From: Bacillota bacterium
Lineage (GTDB): Bacteria > Bacillota > Sulfobacillia > UBA8153
DNA length: 64,000 nucleotides
Assembly: GCA_040756655.1 (NCBI GenBank)
Contig: JBFLYN010000010.1
Location: 1,068-65,067, forward strand
Reading direction: 5' to 3'
In this document: in pieces, positions 17,399 through 59,464 of the stretch
How positions within the stretch are numbered: position 1 is the first letter of the stretch
Layout of the letters: each line of letters starts with the position of its first letter
Made by a program: the position numbers and the translations under genes
Notes under the pieces: model-generated
Seen by the model: the letters and a program-made list of their open reading frames with translations, nothing else
The model's database searches: none
Told to the model about the DNA's origin: nothing

Positions 17399-17587
17399 GG
17401 ATCACCTGCTTTCTCCGGCGCCTGACATTTTATCAACCTGTTGCTCTTTAAAGATTATACACCTCGACTGTACATGGGTAAAGGCGGGCGCGCCACAGCA
17501 TGGAAAGAACTTTTTCTGGCGCCGGGGGAGGAATTGCGGTTCGCGGTCAAGAATAAAATCAACGACCAAGCAACTTAATACATCGGA

Positions 17588-17790
17588 TGAGGATGACGGG
17601 AGAGACCCGGTTCGTCGGGCGCCGAAGGAGCAAGGGAATACCGAAACTCTCAGGTACCAACACTGTCATCTGACGGATCTCTGGAGAGTCCTGGCTTCAC
17701 AGGACACCAAAGGGGTAACTCGCCTGGGAATCAGCGGGAAATCTCTCAGGTAAAAGGACAGGGGAGAGCAGTGCCGGCTTGCCGGCTTCT
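17588..17790 (+). promoter_or_regulatory. tandem glycine riboswitch (two aptamers) plus expression-platform hairpin, leader of the gcv operon
   Basis: Aptamer 1 GGGAGAGACC...GCCGAAGGAGCAA...CTCAGGTACC..ACAG; aptamer 2 CTCTGGAGAGTCC...CACCAAAGGGGTAA...CTCAGGTAAAAGGACAGG (near-exact consensus); hairpin gccggcttgccggc then ttctc; immediately upstream of gcvT. Confidence 0.8.
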
Positions 17791-17865
17791 CACTCTGTCC
17801 TTATCATTTCCCAGGCCGGCGCGAACTCTACTAGCAGTGGCCTGGTCAAGAAGGAGGTGAAAAGA

Positions 17866-18972
17866 GTGGACAATCTAAAGCGAACCCCGCTCTACGCCAC
17901 GCACCTCAAGTACGGCGGAAAGATCATCGACTTCGCTGGCTGGGCGCTTCCGGTCCAGTTTACCAGCATCATCGAAGAACATCACGCGGTGCGCAAGACT
18001 GCCGGCCTGTTTGATGTGTCCGACATGGGAGAGCTTACGGTGGAGGGGCCAGAGAGCCTGGCGCTACTGCAACTGGCGCTCACCAACGACATCAGCCAGG
18101 GTTACACGGGTAAGGTGATCTATTCCCCCATGTGTAACGAGCAGGGCGGAGTGGTGGACGATCTCCTGGTATACTGCCTGGGGCCCCAGCGCTACCTGCT
18201 GGTGATCAACGCGGGTAACATTGAGAAAGACTTCAACTGGGTAGCGGGCCTGGCCAAACGTTTCGGCCAAGTGACCGTCAAGAACGTGTCGTCAGAAGTG
18301 GCGGAGGTGGCACTGCAGGGACCCAATTCCCAGCCCATCCTCGCCAAGCTCACCGCTTTCGACTTGGCGGGCATTCGGTACTATCACGCGGCTGAGAATA
18401 TCGATGTAGGCGGTGTCACCTGCATGGTTTCGCGCACCGGGTATACCGGAGAGGATGGTTTCGAACTGTACTGCGAACCGGACCGGGCCGCCGAGCTTTG
18501 GGACCTGATTATGGAAGCTGGCGACGAATTCGGACTGGTGCCCGCGGGACTTGGTTGCCGTGACACCCTGCGGTTCGAGGCCTCCATGCCCCTGTACGGC
18601 CAAGAACTCGACGACCAACGCGGCCCGCTAGAGGCCGGGCTGGGCAAGTTCGTGGCTTTTGGCAAGGGCGACTTCGTCGGACGCGAGGCCTTACTGCGCC
18701 AGCGTGAACAAGGTCCATCCCTACGCTTGGTAGGTTTCGAGATGTTGGGCAGGGGAATCCCGCGCACCGGCTATCCCTTACATGCCGGCGGGCAGAGGAC
18801 AGGCTACGTCACCACTGGTTCCTACGCTCCTAGCCTTGACAAGAACCTGGGACTCGGGTTCGTGGCACCCGATTACCGCAAGCCGGGCACAGAGATCGAA
18901 GTGGAGATACGCGGCAGGAACATACCGGCACGCGTGGTCAGGACCCCGTTCTACCGAAGGGAGGGTAAGTAA
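17866..18972 (+). CDS. gcvT: glycine cleavage system T protein (aminomethyltransferase)
   Basis: Start GTG at 17866 after AAGGAGGTGA RBS; conserved N-terminus KRTPLYATHLKYGGKIIDFAGWALPVQF. Confidence 0.9.
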   Translation: MDNLKRTPLYATHLKYGGKIIDFAGWALPVQFTSIIEEHHAVRKTAGLFDVSDMGELTVEGPESLALLQLALTNDISQGYTGKVIYSPMCNEQGGVVDDLLVYCLGPQRYLLVINAGNIEKDFNWVAGLAKRFGQVTVKNVSSEVAEVALQGPNSQPILAKLTAFDLAGIRYYHAAENIDVGGVTCMVSRTGYTGEDGFELYCEPDRAAELWDLIMEAGDEFGLVPAGLGCRDTLRFEASMPLYGQELDDQRGPLEAGLGKFVAFGKGDFVGREALLRQREQGPSLRLVGFEMLGRGIPRTGYPLHAGGQRTGYVTTGSYAPSLDKNLGLGFVAPDYRKPGTEIEVEIRGRNIPARVVRTPFYRREGK

Positions 18973-19362
18973 ATGACGTATCCGATGGAGTTCAAGTACA
19001 CCAAGGATCACGAGTACATCAATGTCCAGGGCAGCGAAGCCTACGTGGGCTTGTCCAACTACGCTCAGGACCAGCTGGGTGACATCGTGTTTGTGGAATT
19101 GCCCGAGGTGGGCCGGGTCATCAAGCAGGGTGAAGTGTTTGGAGTGGTGGAGTCGGTCAAGGCCGTCTCCGATTGCTACGCTCCAGCTGGCGGCACTGTG
19201 GTGCGGGTGAACGAACGACTCTTGGACGAACCTGATCTGATCAACAAGGATCCCCACGGCGAGGGCTGGATGATGGTGATCGAGCTGGCAGACCCGTCCG
19301 AACTAGACGAGCTCATGGATATCAATGCCTACCGGAGACTGCTGGAAGAGGTTGGTCACTGA
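18973..19362 (+). CDS. gcvH: glycine cleavage system H protein (lipoyl carrier)
   Basis: Lipoyl-lysine motif ESVKAVSD; 129 aa. Confidence 0.9.
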   Translation: MTYPMEFKYTKDHEYINVQGSEAYVGLSNYAQDQLGDIVFVELPEVGRVIKQGEVFGVVESVKAVSDCYAPAGGTVVRVNERLLDEPDLINKDPHGEGWMMVIELADPSELDELMDINAYRRLLEEVGH

Positions 19363-20705
19363 TGAACTTCATCCCCAACACCGAACGGGACCGCCAGCGG
19401 ATGCTGGAGGCCATTGGGATCAGGTCAATCGAGGAGCTGTTTGAGGACATTCCCGATATCGTGCGGCTAAAGCGGGAACTTGACCTCCCCCGGGCCATGA
19501 GCGAATCCGAGCTTTACTCGCACATGGTCGGCCTAGCCGGCGCCAACAGCAGCTTCCATGAGTATGTGTCATTCCTGGGTGCGGGAGCCTATGACCACTA
19601 CATCCCGGCCGTGGTCCAGCATGTGCTGGGCCGGTCCGAATTCTACACTGCCTACACCCCGTACCAGCCTGAAGTAAGCCAGGCAGTGCTCCAGTCCATC
19701 TATGAGTACCAGACCATGATCTGCGAACTTACCGGCATGGATGTGTCCAACGCTTCCATGTACGACGGAGCCACGGCCATGGCCGAGGCAGCCATGATCG
19801 CCTGCGGCCAGACCCGCCGCAAGAAGATCGTGGTGGCCCGTTCGGTGCACCCCGAGTACCGGGCGGTTATCCATACCTACGCCCGGGGCGCTGACCTGGA
19901 AGTGGTCGAGGTTGACTTCCAGAAAGACAGCGGTCAGGTATGCGGTTCAGGGCTGGCCGGCCAAGTGCCAGGAGCCGGCTGCGTGCTGGTGCAGCAGCCC
20001 AACTTCTTCGGTTGCATCGAGGATGTCCAGAGCATAGGGAATCTGGCTCGCCAGCATGGAGCGCTATTCGTGGTGGCCGTGGACCCGCTGTCCCTGGGGG
20101 TCCTGCGCCCGCCTGCCAGCTATGGCGCTGACATGGTGGTAGGCGAAGGGCAGCCGCTGGGAGTCCCCATGTCGTTTGGCGGGCCATACCTGGGCTTCTT
20201 TGCCGTGACCGAGAAACTGATGAGGCGCATCCCCGGCCGGGTGGTAGGCGCCACCGTGGATGTGAGGGGCCAGCGCGGCTTCGTGCTTACCCTGCAGACC
20301 CGGGAGCAGCACATCCGGAGAGAGAAGGCCACGTCCAACATCTGCTCCAACGAAGCGCTCTGCGCGCTGGCCGCCACGGTATACCTGTCGTGGCTGGGCA
20401 AGGAGGGTATCCAGGACTTGGCGCGCCACTGCCTGCAGAAAGCCGCCTATGCCAGGGACCGCATCACTTCTCTGGACGGGTACCAGCGGGCTTTCAGTGC
20501 TCCCCACTTCAAGGAATTCGCCGTGCGCTGCCAGGTGGGAACTGGCCGCGTCCTGGACGAACTACTCAAGAAAAAGATCATCGCCGGGTACCCCTTGGGC
20601 CGGGACTACCCGGAGCTGGACGATGTCCTGCTCATCTCCGTGACTGAGAAGCGCAGTCGCGGCCAGATCGACGCACTGGTGAGCGGATTGGAGGGATTGG
20701 CATGA
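19362..20705 (+). CDS. gcvPA: glycine dehydrogenase (decarboxylating) subunit 1
   Basis: Family similarity; split P-protein arrangement typical of Firmicutes. Confidence 0.9.
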
Positions 20706-22159
20706 AAAGGCTAGAGCCTCTGATCTTCGAGCTGAGCTCCCCGGGGCGGCGCGCATATTCCCTTCCCGCGCTGGACGTTCCAGAGCAGGACTTGGGTCAG
20801 TTGCTGCCCGCCGGTGAACTCCGACAGGTACCGGCAGAACTGCCTGAAGTCAGCGAAGTTGACGTGGTGCGCCACTTCACACGGCTTTCCCAGCTGAACC
20901 ACGGGGTTGACATCGGGTTTTACCCGCTGGGTTCGTGCACCATGAAGTATAACCCTAAGATCAACGAGGTCGTGGCCGGGCTGCCGGGCTTTGCCAACCT
21001 GCACCCCTATGTTCCTGAATCCATGGCCCAGGGCGCGCTACAGCTGCTGTACGAGATCGAACAGTACTTGTGCGAAATCGGTGGTATGGCCCGGGCCACG
21101 TTGCAGCCCGCGGCCGGAGCCCACGGCGAACTCACGGGCCTGCTTATCATCAAGGCCTACCACCAGGCCCGGGGAGAGCGCCGGACCAAGGTCATCATCC
21201 CTGACTCGGCCCACGGCACCAACCCGGCATCAGCAGTGATGGTGGGCATGGAGACGGTGGAGGTCAAATCGGACCACCGGGGCGGTGTGGACGTGGAGGT
21301 CCTCAGGCGAGTCATGGACGAGTCTGTGTCCTGCCTCATGCTCACCAACCCCAACACGTTGGGCCTGTTTGATGAGAACATCCATGTCATCGCTGACATA
21401 GTGCACCAAAAGGGCGGGCTCCTTTACTACGACGGGGCTAACGCCAACGCCATCATGGGCTATGCGCGGCCGGGCGACACCGGCTTCGACGTGGTACACT
21501 TCAACCTGCACAAGACCTTCGCCACGCCCCACGGTGGTGGCGGCCCGGGCTCCGGTCCCGTGGGGGTGCGGGAGGACCTGGTGAAGTACCTACCGGTACC
21601 ACTGGTGGATTTTGACGGCCAGCGCTACCTCCTAAACTACGATCTTCCTGATACCATCGGCCGGGTGAAGCTGTACTACGGGAATTTCAGCACTATCATC
21701 AAGGCTTATGCCTATATCCGGGCCATGGGTCCAGACGGGCTCAAGAAGGTCAGCGAAAACGCCGTGCTCAACGCCAACTACCTCATGCGGAAACTCCTAG
21801 AGCATTACGACCTACCCTACGACCGGCACTGCAAACACGAGTTCGTGGTAAAGCCCGGGCGGATCAAGGAGAAAACCGGCGTCAGGACGCTGGACATCTC
21901 CAAGCGCCTCCTGGACTACGGGGTCCATCCTCCCACCAACTACTTCCCGCTCATCGTGGAGGAAGCCCTGATGATCGAACCCACGGAGACCGAGTCCATC
22001 GAGACCCTGGACTACTTTGTGGAAACCATGAACCAGATCGCCCGCGAAGCCTACGCCGATCCCGAGCGGGTGAAGACTGCCCCCCACACCACCGTGGTCG
22101 GCCGCCTGGACGAGGCCACCGCGGCGCGGCGCCCTGTGGTCCGATGGAAGAAAGAATAG
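20702..22159 (+). CDS. gcvPB: glycine dehydrogenase (decarboxylating) subunit 2 (PLP-binding)
   Basis: PLP region [16 protein letters not shown]; ATGA overlap with gcvPA. Confidence 0.9.
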
Positions 22160-31127: not shown

Positions 31128-31325
31128 GTGAACATCAACCTCATCTTCCAAATCGCCGGAGTTGCCATCATCGTGTCGGCGCTGCACACCATGCTGAAGA
31201 TGGCGGGGAAAGAAGACTTCGCCTGGCTCTTGACCCTGGCCGGCATCGTCTTGGTGCTCACCATGGTGATCCGGGTCATCAGCGACTTTATGGATGCCGT
31301 AAAGACCATGTTCAACCTTTACTGA
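31128..31325 (+). CDS. spoIIIAC: stage III sporulation protein AC
   Basis: 65-aa two-TM protein; conserved MLKMAGKEDFAWLLTLAG region; operon position. Confidence 0.8.
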   Translation: MNINLIFQIAGVAIIVSALHTMLKMAGKEDFAWLLTLAGIVLVLTMVIRVISDFMDAVKTMFNLY

Positions 31326-39274: not shown

Positions 39275-40111
39275 ATGTACAAGATTACTACCAAGCAGGT
39301 GTTGACCCCAGTCACCAAGCTTATGACGGTGGAGGCGCCCCTGGTTGCCCGCAAGGCCGAACCAGGGCAATTTGTGATCGTGCGGGTCTCCGGCTCCGGT
39401 GAGAGGATCCCCCTGACCATCGCGGACTTCGACCGGGGGGCCGGCACCATTACCCTGGTGTTCCAAGAAGTGGGCTACACCACCCGGCTCTTGGGTACCA
39501 AGGAAGAGGGCGATTCCATCCTGGACGTGGTGGGCCCGCTGGGCGTGCCCGCCGAACTCATGAGCCAGGGTCGGGTGGTCTGCGTGGGCGGCGGCGTGGG
39601 CGTGGCTCCCGTATATCCCAAGGCCAAGGCGCTGCACGAGGCGGGCGTAGAGGTCATATCCATCATCGGTGCCCGTTCCTACGATCTTCTCATCATGGAA
39701 GACATGATGAGGGCGGTGAGCCGGCAGCTCTACGTATGTACTGACGATGGCAGTTTCGGTTATCACGGGTTCGTTTCCGGAAAACTCCAGGAGCTTCTGG
39801 CCAGCGGCGAGCAGTTTGACGAAGTCATCGCCGTCGGCCCGCTTCCCATGATGCGGGCTACCGTGGAGGTCACGCGACCACTGGGGATCAAGACCCTGGT
39901 GAGCCTCAACCCCATCATGGTAGATGGCACCGGTATGTGCGGCGCCTGTCGGGTGACGGTGGGCGGCAAGACCAAGTTTTGCTGTGTGGACGGTCCTATG
40001 TTCGACGGTCACCAGGTGGATTTTGCCGAGGCCATACGGAGGAGCCAGATGTACCTGGAAGAAGAAAAGACTGCCCTGCACCGGTGTGGTTGTCAGGGAG
40101 GTGATGCATAA
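39275..40111 (+). CDS. nfnA: NfnA/SudB/PyrK-like FAD-NAD(P) oxidoreductase subunit with C-terminal [2Fe-2S]
   Basis: PyrK-like ferredoxin reductase fold; C-terminal CGACRVTVGGKTKFCCVDGP cluster motif. Confidence 0.7.
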   Translation: MYKITTKQVLTPVTKLMTVEAPLVARKAEPGQFVIVRVSGSGERIPLTIADFDRGAGTITLVFQEVGYTTRLLGTKEEGDSILDVVGPLGVPAELMSQGRVVCVGGGVGVAPVYPKAKALHEAGVEVISIIGARSYDLLIMEDMMRAVSRQLYVCTDDGSFGYHGFVSGKLQELLASGEQFDEVIAVGPLPMMRATVEVTRPLGIKTLVSLNPIMVDGTGMCGACRVTVGGKTKFCCVDGPMFDGHQVDFAEAIRRSQMYLEEEKTALHRCGCQGGDA

Positions 40112-41505
40112 TGGCCGAGCGTCAAGGCAGAGTTAAGATGCCCGCCCAACCGGCCTCTGAGCGGGTGCGGAATTTCAACGAGGTGAACTTGGGGTTCGAT
40201 GCGGAACTGGCCAGGCAAGAGGCCTTAAGGTGTATCCAGTGCAAAAAGCCCCTTTGTATCCAGGGCTGCCCGGTCAGAGTGAAGATACCCGAGTTCATCC
40301 AGCTGATCGTGGATGGCGACTTCATGGGTGCGGCCCGCACCATCAAAGAAACCAATAACCTGCCGGCCATCTGCGGGCGGGTGTGCCCCCAAGAAGAGCA
40401 GTGCGAGAAAGTGTGCATTCTCGGCAAGCGGTTCGAGCCGGTGGCCATCGGCCGCCTGGAGCGGTTCGCCGCCGACTGGGAACTGAGACAGGGCGTGGAA
40501 CCGCCCCGGTTGCCGGAGCGGCGTCCCGGGAAGGTAGCGGTGGTTGGCGCCGGGCCCGCCGGGCTTACTTGCGCGGGTGACCTCGCCCTCAGGGGATATG
40601 AAGTGACCATCTTCGAGGCACTGCATGCCCCGGGCGGGGTGCTCATTTACGGCATCCCGGAATTCAGGCTCCCCAAGGCCATCGTCAAGGCAGAGGTGGA
40701 CTACGTACTCAGCCTGGGCGTGAAGCTGGAGACCAACGTGATCATCGGGCGTACTCTCACAGTCGACGATCTGTTCCTGGAAGGGTATGATGCAGTCTTT
40801 TTGGGCACCGGGGCTGGCTTGCCCAAGTTCATGAATATCCCCGGGGAAAACCTAAACGGGGTCTACTCCGCCAACGAATGGTTGACCCGTACCAATCTCA
40901 TGAAGGCCTACCAGTTCCCGGAATGGGATACTCCCGTACGGGCGGGCCAACGGGTGGCCGTGGTGGGAGGCGGGAACGTGGCTATGGACGCCGTGCGCTG
41001 TGCTCTTCGCCTGGGGGCTGAGGAAGCTACCATCGTGTACCGCCGGTCCCGCCAGGAGATGCCGGCCCGGGCCGAGGAAGTGGACCATGCCGAGCACGAG
41101 GGCGTGCAGTTCAAGTTCCTGTGCAACCCCACCCGCATCCTGGGCAACGACCGGGGATGGGTCACGGGCATAGAGTGTATTCGCATGGAACTGGGCGAGC
41201 CCGATGCTTCCGGGCGCCGCCGGCCCGTGGAAGTCCAGGGGTCCGAGTTCGTGCTGGACGTGGACACGGTGGTGATGGCTCTGGGGACCAACCCCAACCC
41301 CATAGTGGTGCAGACCACTCCTGGGCTTACTGCCCACCGCTGGGGTGGGCTGGTGGTGGATGAGGCCGGGCTCACCTCCAAGGAGGCAGTGTGGGCAGGC
41401 GGTGACGCAGTCACCGGCTCGGCCACGGTCATCCTGGCCATGGGCGCCGGCAAGACCGCGGCAGAGGCCATAATGAAATACCTGGAGGGCAAGTACCAGG
41501 CTTAG
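40111..41505 (+). CDS. nfnB: NfnB / glutamate-synthase-small-chain-like NADPH-dependent oxidoreductase
   Basis: Two 4Fe-4S motifs ([15 protein letters not shown]; [15 protein letters not shown]) plus two Rossmann GxGxxG motifs ([20 protein letters not shown]). Confidence 0.75.
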
Positions 41506-43671: not shown

Positions 43672-43888
43672 GACCAACCTGCAGCGACTGGAGGAGGTTG
43701 TCAAGCTGCTGGAAAGCGGAGACCTTTCGCTAGAACGCGCGTTAACCCTGTTCCAGGAAGGCATCACGCTGGCCCGGACCCTCAGCGGGCAGTTAGATGC
43801 AGCCGAAGCCCGCATCGACCAGGCGCTCAAGGGGGCCGGCGGGGAACCAGTGCTGGTCCCGGTGGTCCAGCGGAGCGACGGCGAGTGA
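43625..43888 (+). CDS. xseB: exodeoxyribonuclease VII small subunit
   Basis: Internal ATG at 43625; [32 protein letters not shown] signature. Confidence 0.85.
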   Translation: MEPQTQALTQEKPSFETNLQRLEEVVKLLESGDLSLERALTLFQEGITLARTLSGQLDAAEARIDQALKGAGGEPVLVPVVQRSDGE

Positions 43889-44721
43889 GGGGCGGAGAGT
43901 TTTCTGCATTCCACGCCCGGGCCGTGGCCGCTGTCCAAGCCGGGGTCGCCCGCTACCTGGGAGCCTGCGCGCCGGCACCCCGGCTCTGGGAGGCCATGCG
44001 TTATGCCGGGCAGGGCGGGAAACTCCTCCGGCCGGTGATGGTACTGGCGGCGGTGGCTGACAGCGGCGGAGACCTGGAGGGTGCCGTGCCCCTGGCCTGC
44101 GCCGCCGAGTTTGTACATGCCTATTCGCTAGTCCACGATGACCTGCCGCCCATGGATAATGACGACCAGCGGCGTGGTCGCCCATCCTGCCACCGCCAGT
44201 TTGACCAGGCCACGGCCATCCTGGCAGGTGACGCCCTGCTGGCCCTGGCCTTCGAGGTCGGGCTGTCGGCCCGGCCGGCGCGGCGGGCCCGGGCTGCCGT
44301 CCAGGTGCTGGCGCGCGCGGCCGGACCCTTTGGCATCTGTGCCGGGCAGTCCATGGACTTGGGGCTGGAAGGAACCGCGCAGGACCCGGCCGCATTTGAG
44401 CAGTGCTACTACCTGAAAACCGGTTCTCTGTTTGCGGGCTCAGCCGTGGCCGGCGCGTTGCTGGGGACCGGCGTCAATGCTCCGGTCAAGGCACTAACCG
44501 GCTTTGGACGAGAGTTCGGCCTTGGTTTCCAGCTCTATGATGATATCTTTGACCAAGCACCGGGCGCACCCGGTACCTTGCTCCGCTGGTGGTCACCCCA
44601 AAAGGCACAGGAGCGGGCCAGGGCGGCCATGGAGCGGGCCCGCGCGCACTTGCCCCGCGGGTATGTAAGGTTGAAAGAACTGGCGTATTACGTTGAAGGG
44701 TTGATGGCGAAAGACCAGTAG
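43885..44721 (+). CDS. ispA: farnesyl diphosphate synthase (polyprenyl synthetase)
   Basis: FARM LVHDDLPPMDNDDQRRG and SARM FQLYDDIFD motifs. Confidence 0.85.
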   Translation: MRGGEFSAFHARAVAAVQAGVARYLGACAPAPRLWEAMRYAGQGGKLLRPVMVLAAVADSGGDLEGAVPLACAAEFVHAYSLVHDDLPPMDNDDQRRGRPSCHRQFDQATAILAGDALLALAFEVGLSARPARRARAAVQVLARAAGPFGICAGQSMDLGLEGTAQDPAAFEQCYYLKTGSLFAGSAVAGALLGTGVNAPVKALTGFGREFGLGFQLYDDIFDQAPGAPGTLLRWWSPQKAQERARAAMERARAHLPRGYVRLKELAYYVEGLMAKDQ

Positions 44722-44775
44722 TTGCCTGGACCGGCCTGCCAACGACGTTTTGCGTTAGACTCGCCCAATTAACCT

Positions 44776-44805
44776 TTGAAGTCCCCGCGGTCTTCTTGAT
44801 ATAAT
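44776..44805 (+). promoter_or_regulatory. sigma-A-type promoter (TTGAAG - 18 nt - TGATATAAT) driving the noncoding region downstream of ispA
   Basis: Near-consensus -35 and extended -10 read directly from the sequence. Confidence 0.45.
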
Positions 44806-44811
44806 CTTGTT

Positions 44812-45440
44812 TGAACTGTCCGGTTCTGGTGGGGCGCAGTATCCTAGTTGGACCCATTCTCTCTGAAGACGGGGCTAAAAATCCGTCACGGGCACATCGA
44901 TGAAGCTCCTGGTGCTGGCTGGCAACGCCCAGTTGCGGGCTGGTGCTGGGAGTCAAGGAAGACGGGGCGATCCGCAATGGCATGCGGGCGAGTACCCTGC
45001 TTCCGCGGAGGCCCAAGTGCGTGAGGCTTGCCACCGTGGGCACGTTCTTACGGCTTGGAGTTGAAACCTGCATGCGGTGCCGATACTATGGGAGGGCGCT
45101 GGGTGCAGTGTAGCCTGCCTTGAGTGGCTGGGAAGGATGGAGCTCTGGAGCATGCTGGCCGCGGCCGTGGCTGGAATGCTCTTCCGAAATCACAGCTGCA
45201 AAAAAGGCTAAGGAGAGGGCAGGGCCAGGGAGGAAAGCTCCTAGGCTGTTCGGACGAGGGTTGGCGGGGATTAAAGTGTGGCCTGAGTGGCAATCCAGTA
45301 CCGCACGCGGCAACGCTGCGGGGCCGGGTTAAAGGGAAACCGCCGTTCCGGTAACGGGCGGTCACCGGCTGGGAAAGCATGCTGGACCTAAGCCGCAGCA
45401 TTTACCCGTCAGCCTGTCCCCACCAGTTCACCGGCATCAC
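44812..45440 (+). ncRNA. ole: candidate OLE (ornate large extremophilic) RNA
   Basis: About 630 nt with no coherent ORF on either strand (only overlapping short GC-artefact ORFs); strong promoter; located exactly between ispA and dxs and followed by a small polytopic membrane protein, the characteristic genomic context of OLE RNA; does not match RNase P, tmRNA, SRP, T-box or cobalamin motifs. Confidence 0.6.
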
Positions 45441-45469
45441 CTACAAAAAAGAGGAAAGGAACGGCCAAG

Positions 45470-46024
45470 TTGCGAAATCACAGACTGCGGGGGCGGCGGC
45501 CCGGCTGGTTCAACGGTCTCCAGCTGGGCTTTATGGCATTTGTGGCTGCTTTCGTAGTGGCGCTGCCAGCCCAGGCCGCCATGGGCCACCTGGCCGTGGC
45601 GCCAGCCCTGGTGGTTCTCCTGATCATTACCCTGACCGGCATTTTCTTTGACATGGTGGGTGTGGCCACGGCCGCTGCCGATGAGATTCCTTTCCACGCC
45701 CGGGCCTCCAAGCGTGTAAGGGGGGCCAGGCAAAGCCTCTGGCTCGTGCGCAACGCCGACCGGGTGGCGGCTTTTGCCAACGACGTGGTGGGCGATATTG
45801 CTGGAACCATCAGCGGGGCCGCCGTTGCGGCGTTGACCTTTCGGCTGGCCGCAGGCATTGCCGGTGGTGTAGACCGCACCCTCAGCATCGCTGGAGTGGC
45901 GTTGGTGGCCGGGTTGACGGTAGGCGGCAAGGCCGCCGGCAAGGGTTATGCCATCGCCCATGCCAACGATATTGTCGCCCGTACCGGTCGTTTTATGGCA
46001 CTATGGCAGAGGAAGGCGAAGTGA
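45470..46024 (+). CDS. oapA: OLE-associated membrane protein OapA-like (small polytopic membrane protein)
   Basis: TTG start after AGAGGAAAGGAACGG RBS; 184 aa with four predicted TM helices; lies between the candidate OLE RNA and dxs. Confidence 0.5.
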   Translation: MRNHRLRGRRPGWFNGLQLGFMAFVAAFVVALPAQAAMGHLAVAPALVVLLIITLTGIFFDMVGVATAAADEIPFHARASKRVRGARQSLWLVRNADRVAAFANDVVGDIAGTISGAAVAALTFRLAAGIAGGVDRTLSIAGVALVAGLTVGGKAAGKGYAIAHANDIVARTGRFMALWQRKAK

Positions 46025-47941
46025 GTGGCCAAGCTCTTGGACACGGTGAATGGACCAGAGGACCTAAGACGCCTCGACCTAGTGCAGCTGGGCCGTCTGG
46101 CCCGGGAATTGCGGGAGGAGATCGTCTCCACCGTGTCCATGACCGGGGGACACCTGGCCGCCAGCCTTGGGGCAGTGGAACTCACCGTGGCGTTGCATAC
46201 CGTCTTTTCCAGCCCGCGTGACCGGATCGTGTGGGATGTAGGCCACCAGGCCTATGCTCACAAACTCCTCACCGGGCGTCGCCACCGGTTTCACACCCTC
46301 AGGCAGGCCGGGGGCATAAGCGGTTTTCCCCGTCGCCACGAAAGCATCCACGACCATTTTAACGCTGGCCACGCCAGTACTTCCATTTCAGCAGCGCTGG
46401 GTTTTGCCGTGGCCCGGGACCTGTCCGGCGCCCGGCACCACGTGGTGGCCGTCATCGGGGATGGGGCGCTCACCGGTGGCCTGGCCTTTGAGGGGTTGAA
46501 CAACGCCGGGCTCATGAAGACCAACCTCATCGTGGTCATCAACGATAACGAGATGTCCATCTCCTCCAATGTAGGAGCACTTTCTTCGTATCTATCACGC
46601 ATCCGCTCCGCCCCGGCCTACTACCGTGTCAAGAGCGATGTTCAGCAAGCGCTCTCCCGCATCCCCTACGTAGGGAAAACTGTGAGCGAAGCCGCCACTC
46701 GGGTCAAGGACAGTGTGCGCAACCTTGTGGTCCCGGGCGCGCTCTTTGAAGAGCTGGGGTTTACCTACCTTGGCCCCATCGATGGTCACGACATCGGGAG
46801 CCTGCAGGACGTGCTGAGAGGTGCGGCGCGCATCCGGGGCCCGGTGGTGGTCCATGCCATCACCCGCAAGGGAAAGGGATACCCGCCCGCGGAAAGGGAC
46901 CCGGACGCTTTTCACGGGCCCGGGCCATTTGACCGGGACACCGGAGTTCTCAAGCCCAATCACACCCCTTCGTTTTCCCAGGTCTTTGGATCGACGCTGG
47001 TGCGACTGGCCCGGGAGGACCGGCGCATCGTGGCCATCACCGCCGCCATGCCCGGAGGTACCGGGCTTTCGGAGTTCGCCCGGGAGTTCCCAGGTCGCTT
47101 TTTCGACGTGGGCATTGCCGAGCAGCACGCCGTGACCTTCGCCGCCGGGTTGGCGGCTTCAGGTCTCAAGCCGGTGGTGGCCATCTACTCCACGTTTCTC
47201 CAGCGTGCGTACGACCAGCTGGTCCACGACGTATGCCTCCAGGACCTAGGCGTGGTGCTGGCCATCGACCGGGCCGGTATCGTGGGCGAGGACGGCGAAA
47301 CCCACCAGGGCCAGTTCGACCTGGCCTTCCTCCGTCACATCCCTAACCTGACGGTGATGGCCCCCGCCGACGAGCACGAGCTCGAAGACATGCTTGCCAC
47401 TGCCGTCACCCTGGCGGGCCCCAGCGCGGTTCGCTACCCGCGCGGTGCGGTTTGCCGGACCGCTCGCAGCCGGCCGGCGGGTCCCTTGACGCCGGGGGTG
47501 GGACGAGTCCTGCGCCAGGGCCGGCACGTGGCACTGGTGGCTGTGGGGAACCTGGTCCAGGTTGCCCTCGGGGCAGCCGAACTCCTCCTGACCTCGGGCA
47601 TCGACGCCACGGTAGCGGACGCCCGGTTTGTGACCCCCCTTGACCACCGACTCCTGAGGAGTCTGGCCGCCCGCCATCCCTACCTGGTCACACTGGAAGA
47701 GAATACCATAGAAGGGGGCTTCGGGTCGGCGGTGCTGGAAAGCCTGGCCGGAGCGGGTACCAATTGCCAGGTGACGCTGGTGGGAATTCCACGCCGCTTC
47801 ATAGAACACGGTGCGCCCGGCCACATCCGCCGGGTGCACGGGTTGGACGCAGAGGGAATAGCCGGCCGGGTACTGGCCCTCGTCCGTGGGACCCGGGACC
47901 TGGTAAGCGCAAGCGGGACCGGGCGGGGTATGCAGGAGTGA
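46025..47941 (+). CDS. dxs: 1-deoxy-D-xylulose-5-phosphate synthase
   Basis: TPP motif GDGALTGG...NDN, transketolase-like domains; 638 aa. Confidence 0.9.
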   Translation: MAKLLDTVNGPEDLRRLDLVQLGRLARELREEIVSTVSMTGGHLAASLGAVELTVALHTVFSSPRDRIVWDVGHQAYAHKLLTGRRHRFHTLRQAGGISGFPRRHESIHDHFNAGHASTSISAALGFAVARDLSGARHHVVAVIGDGALTGGLAFEGLNNAGLMKTNLIVVINDNEMSISSNVGALSSYLSRIRSAPAYYRVKSDVQQALSRIPYVGKTVSEAATRVKDSVRNLVVPGALFEELGFTYLGPIDGHDIGSLQDVLRGAARIRGPVVVHAITRKGKGYPPAERDPDAFHGPGPFDRDTGVLKPNHTPSFSQVFGSTLVRLAREDRRIVAITAAMPGGTGLSEFAREFPGRFFDVGIAEQHAVTFAAGLAASGLKPVVAIYSTFLQRAYDQLVHDVCLQDLGVVLAIDRAGIVGEDGETHQGQFDLAFLRHIPNLTVMAPADEHELEDMLATAVTLAGPSAVRYPRGAVCRTARSRPAGPLTPGVGRVLRQGRHVALVAVGNLVQVALGAAELLLTSGIDATVADARFVTPLDHRLLRSLAARHPYLVTLEENTIEGGFGSAVLESLAGAGTNCQVTLVGIPRRFIEHGAPGHIRRVHGLDAEGIAGRVLALVRGTRDLVSASGTGRGMQE

Positions 47942-51965: not shown

Positions 51966-52112
51966 ATGCAGGGAATTTCTTGATGACCGGCTGACAGGAC
52001 GACCTGAACATGCCAGGTCTTTTATGTTAATGCGGCAGGATACGCCCGGTGTTGCACGGGCAATTTAAACCCGGAGGTGAAAGCAACAAGACAACAAAAG
52101 GAGGACATCTGG

Positions 52113-53441
52113 TTGACGGACGAACGCAGGCTCAAGCGCAAGCTGGCCGGCCTCGTACTTGCGACCATCGTCATTGCCATCACCACCAGCGTGCCCTTTC
52201 GCACACTGGTAAGCTTGCCGGATGCCATACGGATCTCTTCTGGCCAAGAGCACGTGTTCGGCCTGGACCTGCCGCTGGTTAGAGCCCACTGTGACCAGCA
52301 AGGATTTTTGGCCACTGAAGGCTGGCCGCTGGTGATCAAACCAGCGGCCGCAGGGCAATATACCGTGGAGTTTAGGTTGTTTGGGCTGATCCCGTTGCGG
52401 CGGGTGGCCGTGGAAGTGGTGCCACCCATCTACGTGGTGCCGGGTGGTCATTCCATCGGGGTGCTCTTGCATTCTCACGGCGTCATCGTCAGCAGCGTGT
52501 CGACGGTCACCGACCAGCAGGGCCGCGTGTTCCGTCCCGCCAAGGATGCCGGTCTGGTTGCGGGAGACTTGATCCTGTTGGTAGATGGGCAGCCCGTGCG
52601 CAGCGATGAGCAGCTGGCCGAACTAGTGCACCGGGCCGGAGTCGCCCGGGGCGCTGTAGAACTGGAAGTGCAAAAGCGCGACGGGCGGGTTATCAGGCGT
52701 ACGGTTACACCTGTGCGGTGTGGTACCACCGATCGCTTCCGGATAGGCATCTGGGTGCGCGACACTGCGGCCGGAGTCGGGACACTGACGTTTTACGAAC
52801 CAGAGAGCGGCCTGTTTGCAGCACTGGGGCATGTGGTCACCGACCATGACACGGGACAGCCCGTGAACATCGTGGCCGGGCGGGTGGTACGGTCCACGGT
52901 CACCGGCGTGGAAGCGGGAAGGCGGGGACACCCTGGCGAGATCATCGGAGCCTTCGTAGAAGAGACTGATTTGATGGGCTCCATCGTGAAAAACAGCCAG
53001 GTGGGGATCGTGGGCATGCTCGATACACCTATTAGCAACCCGTACTTCCCAAAACCTATACCAGTAGCCATGAGCCGGGAGGTCAGGACCGGGCCTGTAG
53101 AGATTCTCACGGTAGTAGAGGGCCGGAACATCAAGAAATTCTCGGCAGAAATCGTGGAAATTCGACGCGATCCCCTACCTTACGGCAGGCTGGTCATCAG
53201 AGTGACCGACGAAGAGCTCATAAAGCGTACCGGGGGCATCGTGCAGGGCATGAGCGGCAGCCCAATGGTGCAAGACGGGAAACTGGTGGGAGCAGTCACC
53301 CACGTGTTGGTGAGCGATCCCACGCGGGGGTACGGTGTAAGCGCGGAGTGGATGGTCATAGAAGCCGGCTTGGACAAAATAATGCGACGGGTCGGAGCCC
53401 TGGGGTCTCCGGCCCTGTTGTTATCGAAACTTGTTGTGTGA
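52113..53441 (+). CDS. spoIVB: SpoIVB peptidase (S55, PDZ domain), sporulation signalling protease
   Basis: TTG start after AAAGGAGGACATCTGG RBS; PDZ region and catalytic Ser context QGMSGSPMVQDGKLVGAVTHV. Confidence 0.85.
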   Translation: MTDERRLKRKLAGLVLATIVIAITTSVPFRTLVSLPDAIRISSGQEHVFGLDLPLVRAHCDQQGFLATEGWPLVIKPAAAGQYTVEFRLFGLIPLRRVAVEVVPPIYVVPGGHSIGVLLHSHGVIVSSVSTVTDQQGRVFRPAKDAGLVAGDLILLVDGQPVRSDEQLAELVHRAGVARGAVELEVQKRDGRVIRRTVTPVRCGTTDRFRIGIWVRDTAAGVGTLTFYEPESGLFAALGHVVTDHDTGQPVNIVAGRVVRSTVTGVEAGRRGHPGEIIGAFVEETDLMGSIVKNSQVGIVGMLDTPISNPYFPKPIPVAMSREVRTGPVEILTVVEGRNIKKFSAEIVEIRRDPLPYGRLVIRVTDEELIKRTGGIVQGMSGSPMVQDGKLVGAVTHVLVSDPTRGYGVSAEWMVIEAGLDKIMRRVGALGSPALLLSKLVV

Positions 53442-53523
53442 TTTGCTCTACCACCAAGAAGGATAGGTTCTCTTGTACAGCGAATGATTTTGGGCACATC
53501 TGGAAACGAAAGGGGCAATCTCG

Positions 53524-54276
53524 ATGTCCATTCGAGTCATGATAGCTGATGACAACCGGGAGTTTTGCAGCATTCTCAACCAGTACATTAGCAGCCAGCC
53601 GGACCTTGAAGTTGCGGCGGTGGCCCACAACGGCACCGAGGCACTCGAGATCCTGGACAAGGCCCAACCCGACGTGATGCTCCTGGATATCATCATGCCG
53701 CACCTGGATGGCATCGGCGTGTTGGAACGACTGAACCAAAGAGATAGGCGCCCCAAGGTGGTGATGCTCACGGCTTTTGGCCAGGAGACTATTACCCAGA
53801 GAGTGGTGGGGATGGGCGCTGACTACTATATTCTCAAACCCTTTGACCTCGAAGTGCTGGCCAACCGCATCCGGCAGCTTTGCAACCAACCTGCGGTGGC
53901 CAAGCCCCGGGTAGTCAAGGCCCGCAGCCTGGACCTGGATGTGACTCACCTCATACATGAGATCGGTATCCCCGCTCACATCAAAGGCTATCTTTACCTG
54001 AGGGAAGCCATCCTGATGGTAGTAGCACGGTACGATTTGCTGTCTGCAGTCACCAAGGAACTCTATCCTTCCATTGCCGCCAAGTACCAGACAACCCCCA
54101 GCCGCGTGGAGCGGGCCATTCGCCATGCCATAGAAGTCGCCTGGAACCGCGGAAGCCTGGAGGTCATCAACAGCCTCTTTGGGCATACCGTCAGCCAGGA
54201 GCGGGGCAAACCCACCAACTCCGAGTTCATAGCCATGGTGGCCGACAAGCTGCGCATGGAATCCCGGGCCAGCTAG
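53524..54276 (+). CDS. spo0A: sporulation master regulator Spo0A
   Basis: Receiver domain [14 protein letters not shown]...D; Spo0A-specific C-terminal 0A-box-binding domain ([27 protein letters not shown]). Confidence 0.9.
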
Positions 54277-57742: not shown

Positions 57743-59464
57743 ATGCCCGTCAGGCGGGAGCGGGAACTGGAAGTCATCCTCAACTCCACCCACGATGGGA
57801 TGATCGCGGTGGATGCCGCCGGGATCATCACCCTTTTCAACGCCGCCGCCGAACGCCTCATTGGGGTCACCCGCGACCAGGCGCTGGGGAGGCCGGCTTC
57901 TGAGGTAATCCCCAACACCCGCTTGTACGAGGTGCTGCGTACTGGTGAGCCCGAACTCAACCGCCAGCAGGACATGGGGAATGTCACTATCATCACCAAC
58001 CGGGTGCCCGTGCGAGACGAAGCGGGTCAGGTGGTAGGTGCGGTCGCCGTGTTCAGGGACATTACGGAAGTGCGCAGCCTGGCCGAACAGATCACCAACC
58101 TAACCCAAGTGCAGTCGCTATTGGAGTCCATCATCAACTCCACCCAGGATGCCATCTCCGTGGTGGACGCCCACGGGAACGGGCTGCTCATCAACCCGGC
58201 TTACACCCGCATAACCGGACTGACCGAGGCCGACGTCATCGGCAAGCCCGCCACGGTGGATATTGCCGAGGGTGAAAGCATGCACCTGCAGGTCTTGCGC
58301 ACCCGGCGGCCGGTGCGGGGTGTGCCCATGAAAGTGGGTCCCCGCCGCCGCGAAGTAGTGGTCAATGTGGCCCCCATTATGGTGGCCGGGGAGCTCAAGG
58401 GCTCGGTGGGGGTCATTCACGACGTCTCGGAGATCACCCGCCTTTCTGAGGAACTAGAGCGGGTCAAGCGGCTGGTCAGAAGGCTGGAGGCCAAGTACAC
58501 GTTCGACGAGGTTGTGGCCGTAAGCCAGGTCATGCGGACCGCCGTGGAACAGGCGCGGCGGGCGGCTGAAACCCCGGTCACCGTGCTCTTACGGGGAGAA
58601 AGCGGCACTGGCAAGGAGTTGTTCGCCCACGCCATCCACAACGCCAGCCGGCGGGCCGGGGGCCCACTGGTGCGGGTAAATTGCGCCGCCCTCTCCGAGT
58701 CATTGCTGGAAAGCCAGCTTTTTGGTTACGTGGAGGGCGCCTTTACCGGGGCCCGGCGTGGTGGGCGGCGCGGGTTGTTTGAAGAGGCCGCCGGGGGCAC
58801 GATCTTCCTGGACGAAGTGGGGCTCATGAATCTCAACCTCCAGACCAAGCTATTGCGGGTGCTCCAGGAACGCGAGGTAGTACGCGTGGGCGATACCCAG
58901 CCTTTGCCAGTGGACGTGCGTGTCATCGCCGCCACCAACACCCAGCTGGAACGAGCCGTGGCCGCCGGGGAGTTCCGGGAAGATCTGTACTACCGCCTCA
59001 ACGTGGTTCCCATCTTCATCCCACCCTTGCGCCAGCGACGTGAGGATCTCCCGCTGCTGGCCCACCACCTGATCCGCAAGCTCAACCAGGAGTACGGGCG
59101 GAACGTGGAAAGCCTTTCCCCTCAGGCGCTCCAGAATCTTCTGGCCTACCACTGGCCGGGCAACGTGCGCGAGCTCGAGAATGTCCTGGGCCGGGCCATG
59201 ATCAACATGACCTACTGCCAGGACTGCCTGGAGGCCGGCCATCTACCTCCCCTGGAAAGCCCCGGGGGCCAGGGCGAGCCCCGGGGCAGGCCTCCTGGGG
59301 TAGTGACCCTGGAGCGGGCAGTGGAGGATGCGGAGCGGCAGGCGGTAACGGCTGCCCTGTCCGCAGCCGGGGGCAACAAGGCCCTGGCCGCACGCTTGCT
59401 GGGCATCGCCCCCCGCACCCTGTACTACAAGCTGGAACGCTTGGGCCTGATGCGACCGTCCTGA
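57743..59464 (+). CDS. bkdR: sigma-54-dependent transcriptional activator with two PAS domains (BkdR-like)
   Basis: AAA+ sigma-54 interaction domain [15 protein letters not shown] with GAFTGA-like loop (here [10 protein letters not shown]) and ESQLFGY; C-terminal Fis-type HTH; two N-terminal PAS domains; followed by a -24/-12 promoter. Confidence 0.8.

Follow-up and report, generated by a model that had tools for sequence, protein, structure and literature searches.

The locus analysed here lies in a stretch of 64,000 nucleotides (nt) on contig JBFLYN010000010.1 of a Bacillota genome (assembly GCA_040756655.1), which we refer to at its full length as the window. Between ispA and dxs on the forward strand, a gap of 748 nt separates the ispA stop codon (44721) from the next real coding sequence at 45470, which encodes a membrane protein of 184 amino acids (aa), and dxs starts directly after the stop codon of that reading frame. 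We found that the gap holds a full-length OLE (ornate, large, extremophilic) RNA and that the 184-aa protein is its obligate membrane partner OapA, so that the locus carries a canonical ole-oapA pair with intact structural and sequence determinants, as a sequence-only reading of the same DNA had proposed from the position between ispA and dxs. We give a probability of about 97% to the reading of this region as an ole-oapA locus, with the full-length OLE RNA followed by the OapA gene, in the genome of a spore-forming member of the Bacillota, and nothing in the analysis contradicts this identification. The features of the locus are as follows:

43885-44721, + strand: ispA (farnesyl diphosphate synthase family), upstream neighbour; PF00348 (polyprenyl synthetase), 138 bits
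44776-44805, + strand: proximal sigma-A-like promoter, with -35 element TTGAAG (44776-44781), 18-nt spacer and extended -10 element TGATATAAT (44797-44805)
44815-45436, + strand: OLE RNA of the full-length type, 622 nt, 61.9% G+C (GC); Rfam family RF01071
44826-44834, + strand: P1 closing helix, 5' strand, CUGGUGGGG, pairing with 45418-45426
44890-44905, + strand: invariant block GGGCACAUCGAUGAAG in the P4a / J4a-5 region before P5, from the alignment and the upper-case Rfam consensus
45301-45321, + strand: P13 hairpin with a 1-nt bulge (C45306) and the GNRA tetraloop GCAA (45310-45313), from the Rfam-projected structure
45342-45362, + strand: P14.1 hairpin with the GNRA tetraloop GUAA (45351-45354), from the Rfam-projected structure
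45418-45426, + strand: P1 closing helix, 3' strand, CCCCACCAG, pairing with 44826-44834
45450-45461, + strand: purine-rich ribosome-binding region AGAGGAAAGGAA ahead of the oapA TTG start, as read from the sequence
45470-46024, + strand: oapA, 184 aa, TTG start, four-transmembrane (four-TM) CNNM-like membrane protein, assigned from synteny, motifs and fold
45701-45763, + strand: OapA basic linker (residues 78-98), with its cytoplasmic side inferred
45782-45796, + strand: OapA DxxxD motif, D105-V-V-G-D109
46025-47941, + strand: dxs (1-deoxy-D-xylulose-5-phosphate synthase), downstream neighbour; TIGR00204, 826 bits

OLE RNAs were described in 2006 and are represented in Rfam by RF01071. When the window was searched for each of the 4,227 families in Rfam, two matches rose above threshold. 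One of them is this family at 44815-45436 (+), which scores 436.4 bits (E value 7.7e-125; the gathering score is 50) in an untruncated alignment that covers model positions 1-616 of 616. No other Rfam family than OLE reaches threshold in the gap between ispA and dxs, in agreement with the sequence-only reading, which had named OLE as the candidate and had found no hallmarks of RNase P, tmRNA, SRP, T-box or cobalamin-riboswitch RNAs in the region.

We transcribed the Rfam alignment, which reproduces the window sequence exactly and in which 154 of the 159 consensus pairs are testable. Standard pairs are formed in 93.5% (144/154) of these, 97 of them as in the consensus, 10 with a change on one side and 37 with changes on both sides, and 92% (229/249) of the highly conserved (upper-case) consensus positions are kept. 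Relative to the 616-position model the only deletions measure 1, 1, 5, 4, 1 and 1 nt, and insertions of 4 nt (around 45037-45040) and 11 nt (around 45084-45094) fall in variable hairpin loops of the model. Because large deletions are absent, the RNA is of the full-length type, not of variants 1 or 2 defined by Fernando and Breaker, in which P7-P9 are shortened or missing (PMC11332333). Folding the OLE region as a single sequence yields a minimum free energy of -293.8 kcal/mol (z = -3.0), and the fold recovers P1, whose two strands CUGGUGGGG and CCCCACCAG are perfect reverse complements forming a helix of 9 base pairs. P1 pairs the ends of the RNA in the published OLE model and is left unpaired by the Rfam model.

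The agreement with the model has two limits: non-standard pairs make up 10 of the 154, most of them within the variable P7-type stem, and around 45248-45257 one small hairpin has shrunk to a minimal form. For this hairpin, the structure copied from the model was rejected as sterically impossible, with a loop of zero length, and the real form is likely a stem of 3 base pairs with a GGAC loop.

A scan of a genome collection for a conserved OLE motif provided at least 120 comparison loci (L002-L121) from many Bacillota lineages; these are loci among the matches listed, without those of Halalkalibacterium (Bacillus) halodurans and Clostridium acetobutylicum. From this set, 57 complete OLE RNAs were extracted and aligned with the window copy using MAFFT, and the Rfam structure was projected onto the resulting alignment of 58 sequences. 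Standard pairs occupied 85.6% of the alignment cells, compared with 40-46% when the 3' partners were slid by 1-3 columns, double-sided changes occurred in 117 of the 154 pairs, and none of 500 shuffles equalled any of the observed measures. The only weak helices were the hypervariable P9-type stems, which MAFFT aligned poorly, and long invariant blocks are evident in the alignment. In the register of the window's P1, pairing on the MAFFT alignment was 50%, no better than in shuffles, and the P1 of the family was found one alignment column away (slide -1), with 82.8% of cells paired and a covariation score of 0.46; the mismatch at P1 arises because the window row is offset in the alignment, and the helix itself is present. 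The pair counts, the covariation across 58 sequences and the recovery of P1 in the minimum-free-energy fold together bear out the multi-stem architecture expected of an OLE RNA.

The window copy is about 71% identical to the nearest of the 57 compared OLE RNAs, and its GC content is the highest of the 58 aligned (sample median 49%). We rejected high GC as a mark that sets this copy apart, since OLE RNAs of 60.6-66.3% GC are already among the comparison loci (L006 at 66.3%, Symbiobacterium thermophilum, L048, at 62.1%, and four more at 60.6-61.0%). With such RNAs already sampled and about 2,800 OLE representatives described (PMC11332333), the earlier suggestion that a high-GC copy would be a useful source of covariation had to be toned down. 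Two loci of the motif scan carry bin labels outside the Bacillota, namely L068 (JAAZFC010000135.1, 'Fibrobacter sp.') and L085 (JBLMYQ010000034.1, 'Deltaproteobacteria bacterium'). Mis-binning or horizontal transfer is likely in both, because their flanks consist of Bacillota-type ispA, oapA and dxs; Fernando and Breaker noted the same two explanations for 24 non-Bacillota OLE hits (PMC11332333).

The compensatory changes also bear on whether the gap conceals a real protein gene, either one of its mechanical open reading frames (ORFs) or a gene with a rare start, with an RNA match that would then be incidental. The minus strand does carry two long mechanical ORFs, one of 195 aa (44486-45073) and the other of 117 aa (45048-45401). 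Searches against Pfam gave no family match for either one, the longer ORF runs antisense over the 3' end of ispA, and both are the usual spurious ORFs in a genome of 63.3% GC. A codon-position GC screen of the window (threshold 0.15, with typical real genes at 0.4-0.7) selected neither of them, and the sole gap ORF to pass it, a frame of 75 aa at 45086-45313 on the minus strand, lay barely over the cutoff at 0.17. Moreover, the RNA model, with an E value of 8e-125, accounts for the region base by base, and coding constraint would not yield compensatory pair changes across 58 genomes. A hidden protein gene is thereby effectively refuted and, for practical purposes, excluded. The initial description of the gap as some 720 nt without a coherent ORF stands insofar as it holds no real coding gene; the actual gap is somewhat longer, and mechanical ORFs are present on its minus strand.

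Upstream of the OLE RNA, the sigma-A-like promoter matches the consensus at 10 of 12 positions, with a TATAAT -10 element and its TG extension, and two such sites were found in the scanned region where 0.5 would be expected. From the end of the -10 element it is 21 nt to P1 and 10 nt to the first Rfam-matched position, and transcription is predicted to start around 44811-44813, 2-4 nt ahead of the Rfam match. A sigma-A-like site also occurs within the 80 nt before P1 at 81 of the 119 other OLE loci, compared with about 18 expected from shuffles, and they lie close together, no more than about 15 nt away from the position of the window promoter. Because so many other loci have a clustered site at the equivalent position, the promoter call, which the sequence-only reading had made at exactly these coordinates (TTGAAG-18-TATAAT), is well supported by position, and the promoter is presumably active. 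In H. halodurans, the promoter immediately upstream of ole is active, with an effect of more than 100-fold, and the 5' ends of the OLE RNA, which is very stable and ethanol-induced, lie near the start of P1 (PMC3413148).

Downstream of the OLE RNA, the family of the 184-aa protein was assigned from synteny, motifs and fold, because no NCBIfam model recognises it and Pfam gives only a sub-threshold match to CNNM (DUF21, PF01595) over residues 49-180, with 19.3 bits against a cutoff of 28.4. The exact protein is present in NCBI as 'MAG: hypothetical protein AB1445_06105 [Bacillota bacterium]', from a metagenome-assembled genome (MAG), and has 2,388 homologues, many of them labelled 'CNNM transmembrane domain' or 'CorB'. 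It has no close named relative: identities are 38-51% to proteins from Thermaerobacter, Symbiobacteriaceae, Moorella and Paenibacillus, as against 66-72% for those of unnamed metagenomic relatives. In 94 of the 96 comparison loci with enough downstream sequence, tblastn detected a same-strand homologue lying 572-984 nt past the OLE motif (E values of 1e-15 to 1e-40, 32-54% identity). The DxxxD motif is conserved in these 94 OLE-linked proteins, and in 51 homologues D105, G108 and D109 are invariant, as are D61, P74, K154 and K158.

An AlphaFold (AF2) model of the protein, with a mean predicted local distance difference test score (pLDDT) of 85.9 and a predicted template-modelling score (pTM) of 0.76, contains long helices at residues 13-40, 43-69, 96-129 and 134-163, two short helices in the basic linker and an amphipathic C-terminal helix. 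The same four hydrophobic segments appear in the Kyte-Doolittle profile, the last two being only moderate at 1.5-1.6. Seven lysines or arginines fall within residues 70-98, and the AAKKxxGARQAIWLVRNADR block is kept in the family consensus; the basic face of the protein is inferred to be cytoplasmic. For the predicted fold, archaeal CorB (7M1U) is a top structural match, suggesting a CorB/CorC-like arrangement. Searching the PDB by sequence and by profile produced no alignment to CNNM proteins from which the column of the conserved CNNM proline could be located, and the family has an invariant proline of its own, P74.

The criteria published for OapA are its position, the DxxxD motif, four TM segments, a basic cluster, a distant likeness to CNNM proteins and the lack of the conserved CNNM proline (PMC11332333, PMC12265935). 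Judged by its sequence and predicted fold, the 184-aa protein agrees with those that could be checked, the assignment being made through the OLE-adjacent family and these criteria, not through direct alignment to the H. halodurans protein. The earlier description of a 184-aa four-TM protein followed by dxs is thus confirmed, and the suspected relation to OapA is borne out by a homologue immediately behind OLE in 94 of 96 loci, together with the DxxxD motif and the four TM segments. As reported by Block et al. 2011 in the account given in PMC12265935, OapA binds OLE cooperatively and brings it to the membrane.

An intact partner gene also matters for whether this OLE RNA is still functional. 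Rare defective ole genes are mentioned in the literature, in genomes without oapA, and a decaying or non-functional relic would agree with the score of 436 bits, which is the lowest of nine OLE RNAs scored (the other eight reach 439-509), as well as with the ten non-standard consensus pairs and the 20 changed conserved positions. Against decay, the match is full-length and untruncated, most mismatches occur in stems that are variable in the family, and 92% of the conserved nucleotides are retained, as are 93.5% of the pairs, with 37 compensatory changes that indicate continued selection for structure. In addition, the P1 helix is perfect, the promoter is intact, and the neighbouring oapA is intact with every invariant residue. 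We therefore regard a relic as highly improbable and treat the window copy as a canonical OLE RNA.

The sites at which proteins bind OLE RNAs in other species can be followed in this copy. The block GGGCACAUCGAUGAAG is invariant in 58/58 aligned OLE RNAs, a count that is partly circular because the loci were picked with the same motif, and its region contains a palindrome to which OapA binds, along with one half of the kink-turn (k-turn) bound by OapC (PMC9723947, PMC12265935). The primary determinants of OapB binding are P13 with its single-nucleotide bulge and GNRA loop, and the GNRA loop on P14.1 is a weak second OapB site (PMC7936274). Across the 58 sequences, P13 (helix 19) is 95.8% paired with 7 of its 8 pairs covarying, and P14.1 (helix 21) is 90.3% paired. 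Together, the features of P13, P14.1 and GGGCACAUCGAUGAAG are in keeping with assembly into a canonical ribonucleoprotein (RNP). Among the window ORFs scanned, about two thirds of those in the 64 kb, none encodes OapB, OapC or bS21.

The spacing between the RNA and oapA suggests how the two would be expressed. The oapA TTG start lies 33 nt from the end of the Rfam match and 43 nt from the end of P1, close to the median P1-end spacer of 42 nt at 45 other loci, where a terminator-like hairpin is present in 6/45 and none in 39/45. From the promoter to dxs, no terminator-like site was found on the + strand of the window; because there is no terminator before oapA, the primary transcript probably runs into oapA and dxs. 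Co-transcription with oapA, followed by the build-up of a stable P1-bounded RNA, would be the most likely arrangement. The roughly 630-nt transcript predicted by the sequence-only reading remains plausible as the mature RNA, and the primary transcript would probably be longer. Across the family, the clustered promoter and the short, terminator-poor spacer suggest that ole and oapA generally form a single promoter-proximal transcription unit.

Such close linkage, with no terminator between OLE and oapA, 33 nt from the Rfam match to the TTG start and the same terminator-free arrangement at 39/45 loci, would also be expected if the element worked in cis alone, forming a long, structured 5' leader (riboswitch- or attenuator-like) of oapA-dxs and not as part of a stable trans-acting RNP. 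In H. halodurans, however, OLE builds up as one very stable species with a half-life of about 3 h, to which OapA, OapB and OapC bind, and a copy at a distal locus rescues phenotypes (PMC3413148, PMC9723947). The protein-binding determinants are conserved in the window copy. Furthermore, two comparison loci carry a full-length OLE without a downstream oapA, which argues that OLE is not simply an oapA leader. We consider a purely cis-acting leader improbable, and favour an OLE RNA that accumulates and assembles with OapA.

Both of these loci come from MAGs. In an Ammoniphilus sp. MAG (L009:4542-5173, minus strand), the full-length OLE scores 499.7 bits and has a terminator-like hairpin right behind it, and in an unclassified Bacillota MAG (L023:1838-2470, minus strand) it scores 468.1 bits; dxs follows directly in each, with no oapA homologue between. 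Either oapA lies elsewhere in these genomes or they are among the rare cases of OLE without OapA known from the literature.

Combining these results with work on other species, we outline how the locus may operate. Transcription of OLE would come mainly from its own sigma-A-type promoter, with read-through from ispA probably a second source, and would carry on into oapA and dxs for want of a terminator, and a stable RNA of about 610 nt bounded by P1 would then remain. In other species OLE dimerises, is bound by OapA dimers and is located at the membrane, with P3 possibly spanning the bilayer, and OLE has roles in tolerance of alcohol, cold, Mg2+ and poor carbon sources (PMC3413148, PMC10898510, PMC12265935, PMC12286853). 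By analogy, the folded window RNA would dimerise and be held by OapA dimers at, and possibly across, the cytoplasmic membrane (PMC3413148, PMC12265935, PMC12286853), with OapB on the P13 GNRA hairpin and OapC on the k-turn beside P5 if the host encodes both proteins. The particle may aid tolerance of short-chain alcohols, cold, excess Mg2+ and poor carbon sources, most likely by modulating a CNNM-like divalent-cation transport activity of OapA; in the working hypothesis of the field, OLE would stand in for the CBS and CorC regulatory domains of MpfA/CorB, which OapA lacks.

From the missing terminator, the spacer of 33-43 nt and the promoter that ole has of its own, one could go further and suppose that ole and oapA form one obligate transcription unit in this lineage, perhaps generally, whose RNP assembles co-transcriptionally and co-translationally, such that nascent OapA captures the OLE domain of its own mRNA and pulls it to or into the membrane before processing frees the mature RNA. 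We regard this version as speculative and rather unlikely.

The genes around the locus form the classical OLE neighbourhood, in the order xseA-xseB-ispA-OLE-oapA-dxs-tlyA-nadK-argR-recN. The ispA product also matches NF045485 (FPPsyn) with 202 bits, under the cutoff of that model. On the 5' side lie asp23, an Asp23-like gene, DUF2273, nusB, an NfnAB-like oxidoreductase pair, folD, xseA and xseB, and on the 3' side dxs is followed by tlyA, an NAD kinase gene, argR, recN, spoIVB and spo0A. Among the comparison OLE loci, an IspA homologue is found no more than 2 kb upstream in 69/91, and Dxs comes after oapA in 60/76, with TlyA directly after oapA in 14 of the other 16. The oxidoreductase pair, at 39275-41505 (+), is inserted between nusB and folD in an otherwise classical nusB-folD-xseAB cluster; it consists of a PyrK-like subunit (DHODB Fe-S and NAD-binding domains) and a GltD-like subunit (Fer4_20 and Pyr_redox_2), and resembles NfnAB or the sulfide dehydrogenase of anaerobes.

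The sporulation genes spoIVB, spo0A and spoIIIAC, together with a sigma-54-dependent PAS-domain activator, are found in the window (52077-54276, 57743-59464; 31128-31325), and the host can be identified from these genes as an endospore-forming member of the Bacillota. Membership of the Bacillota, as expected of an OLE host, is further indicated by the identical OapA of the NCBI 'Bacillota bacterium' MAG. OLE presence is reported to correlate with sporulation proteins, with which an endospore-forming host is consistent. The sequence was also met with in run SRR29635773.

The second Rfam match above threshold lies far from the locus. It is a glycine riboswitch aptamer (RF00504) at 17587-17675 (+) with 66.3 bits, and the longer glycine-GGAnGA model RF03166 spans 17583-17765 (+) with 92 bits, its gathering score of 110 not being reached. 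A single aptamer was detected (singlet type), directly 5' of gcvT-gcvH-gcvPA-gcvPB (17779-22159).

Compared with the OLE RNAs of H. halodurans, C. acetobutylicum and C. botulinum, the latter two known from cryo-electron microscopy, the window copy shares the length class, the covarying stems, the invariant blocks and the closure by P1, and it has in common with the Halalkalibacterium and Clostridium loci the proximal promoter, the oapA gene immediately 3', the ispA/dxs neighbourhood and a sporulating Bacillota host. It differs from them only in sequence, in its GC content, the roughly 71% identity to its nearest relative, the loop insertions, the minimal hairpin and the one-column shift of P1, none of which touches a defining feature. 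Like known OapA proteins, the window protein is encoded in the same place and on the same strand with respect to ole, falls in the size class of about 180-200 aa and has four TM segments, the DxxxD motif, the basic linker and weak CNNM similarity, and CorB 7M1U as a top match is also what has been reported for the H. halodurans OapA (PMC11332333).

The CNNM Mg2+ transporters MpfA, CorB and CorC have three TM helices, whereas OapA has four, carries the DxxxD motif, does not reach the Pfam threshold for CNNM and always comes with an RNA gene as its partner; with 184 aa in total, the window protein contains neither the CBS pair nor the CorC/HlyC domain. It resembles the CNNM membrane module and is not a member of the MpfA/CorB/CorC group. 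Among other bacterial RNAs, GOLLD, ROOL, HEARO and raiA are, like OLE, large and highly structured, and GOLLD and ROOL form homo-oligomers as OLE does (PMC12286853), but all four occur in other gene contexts without an OapA partner, and none of their models reaches threshold in the region.

The locus is thus a textbook OLE-OapA copy from a class that has been described in depth, and no novel type of element. The gain lies in annotating an 'empty' gap of 748 nt correctly and in naming AB1445_06105, currently 'hypothetical', as OapA; beyond annotation, a further full-length pair of OLE and OapA, in the MAG of an uncultured member of the Bacillota, matters little and opens no new question. OLE itself is among the most intriguing bacterial non-coding RNAs and may be an integral-membrane RNA. 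A fairly divergent yet canonical GC-rich copy brings a modest gain in covariation and is a possible candidate for structural work and, coming from a lineage without a close cultured relative, could prove a better-behaved specimen for working out the structure of OLE domain 2 and of the OapA complex.

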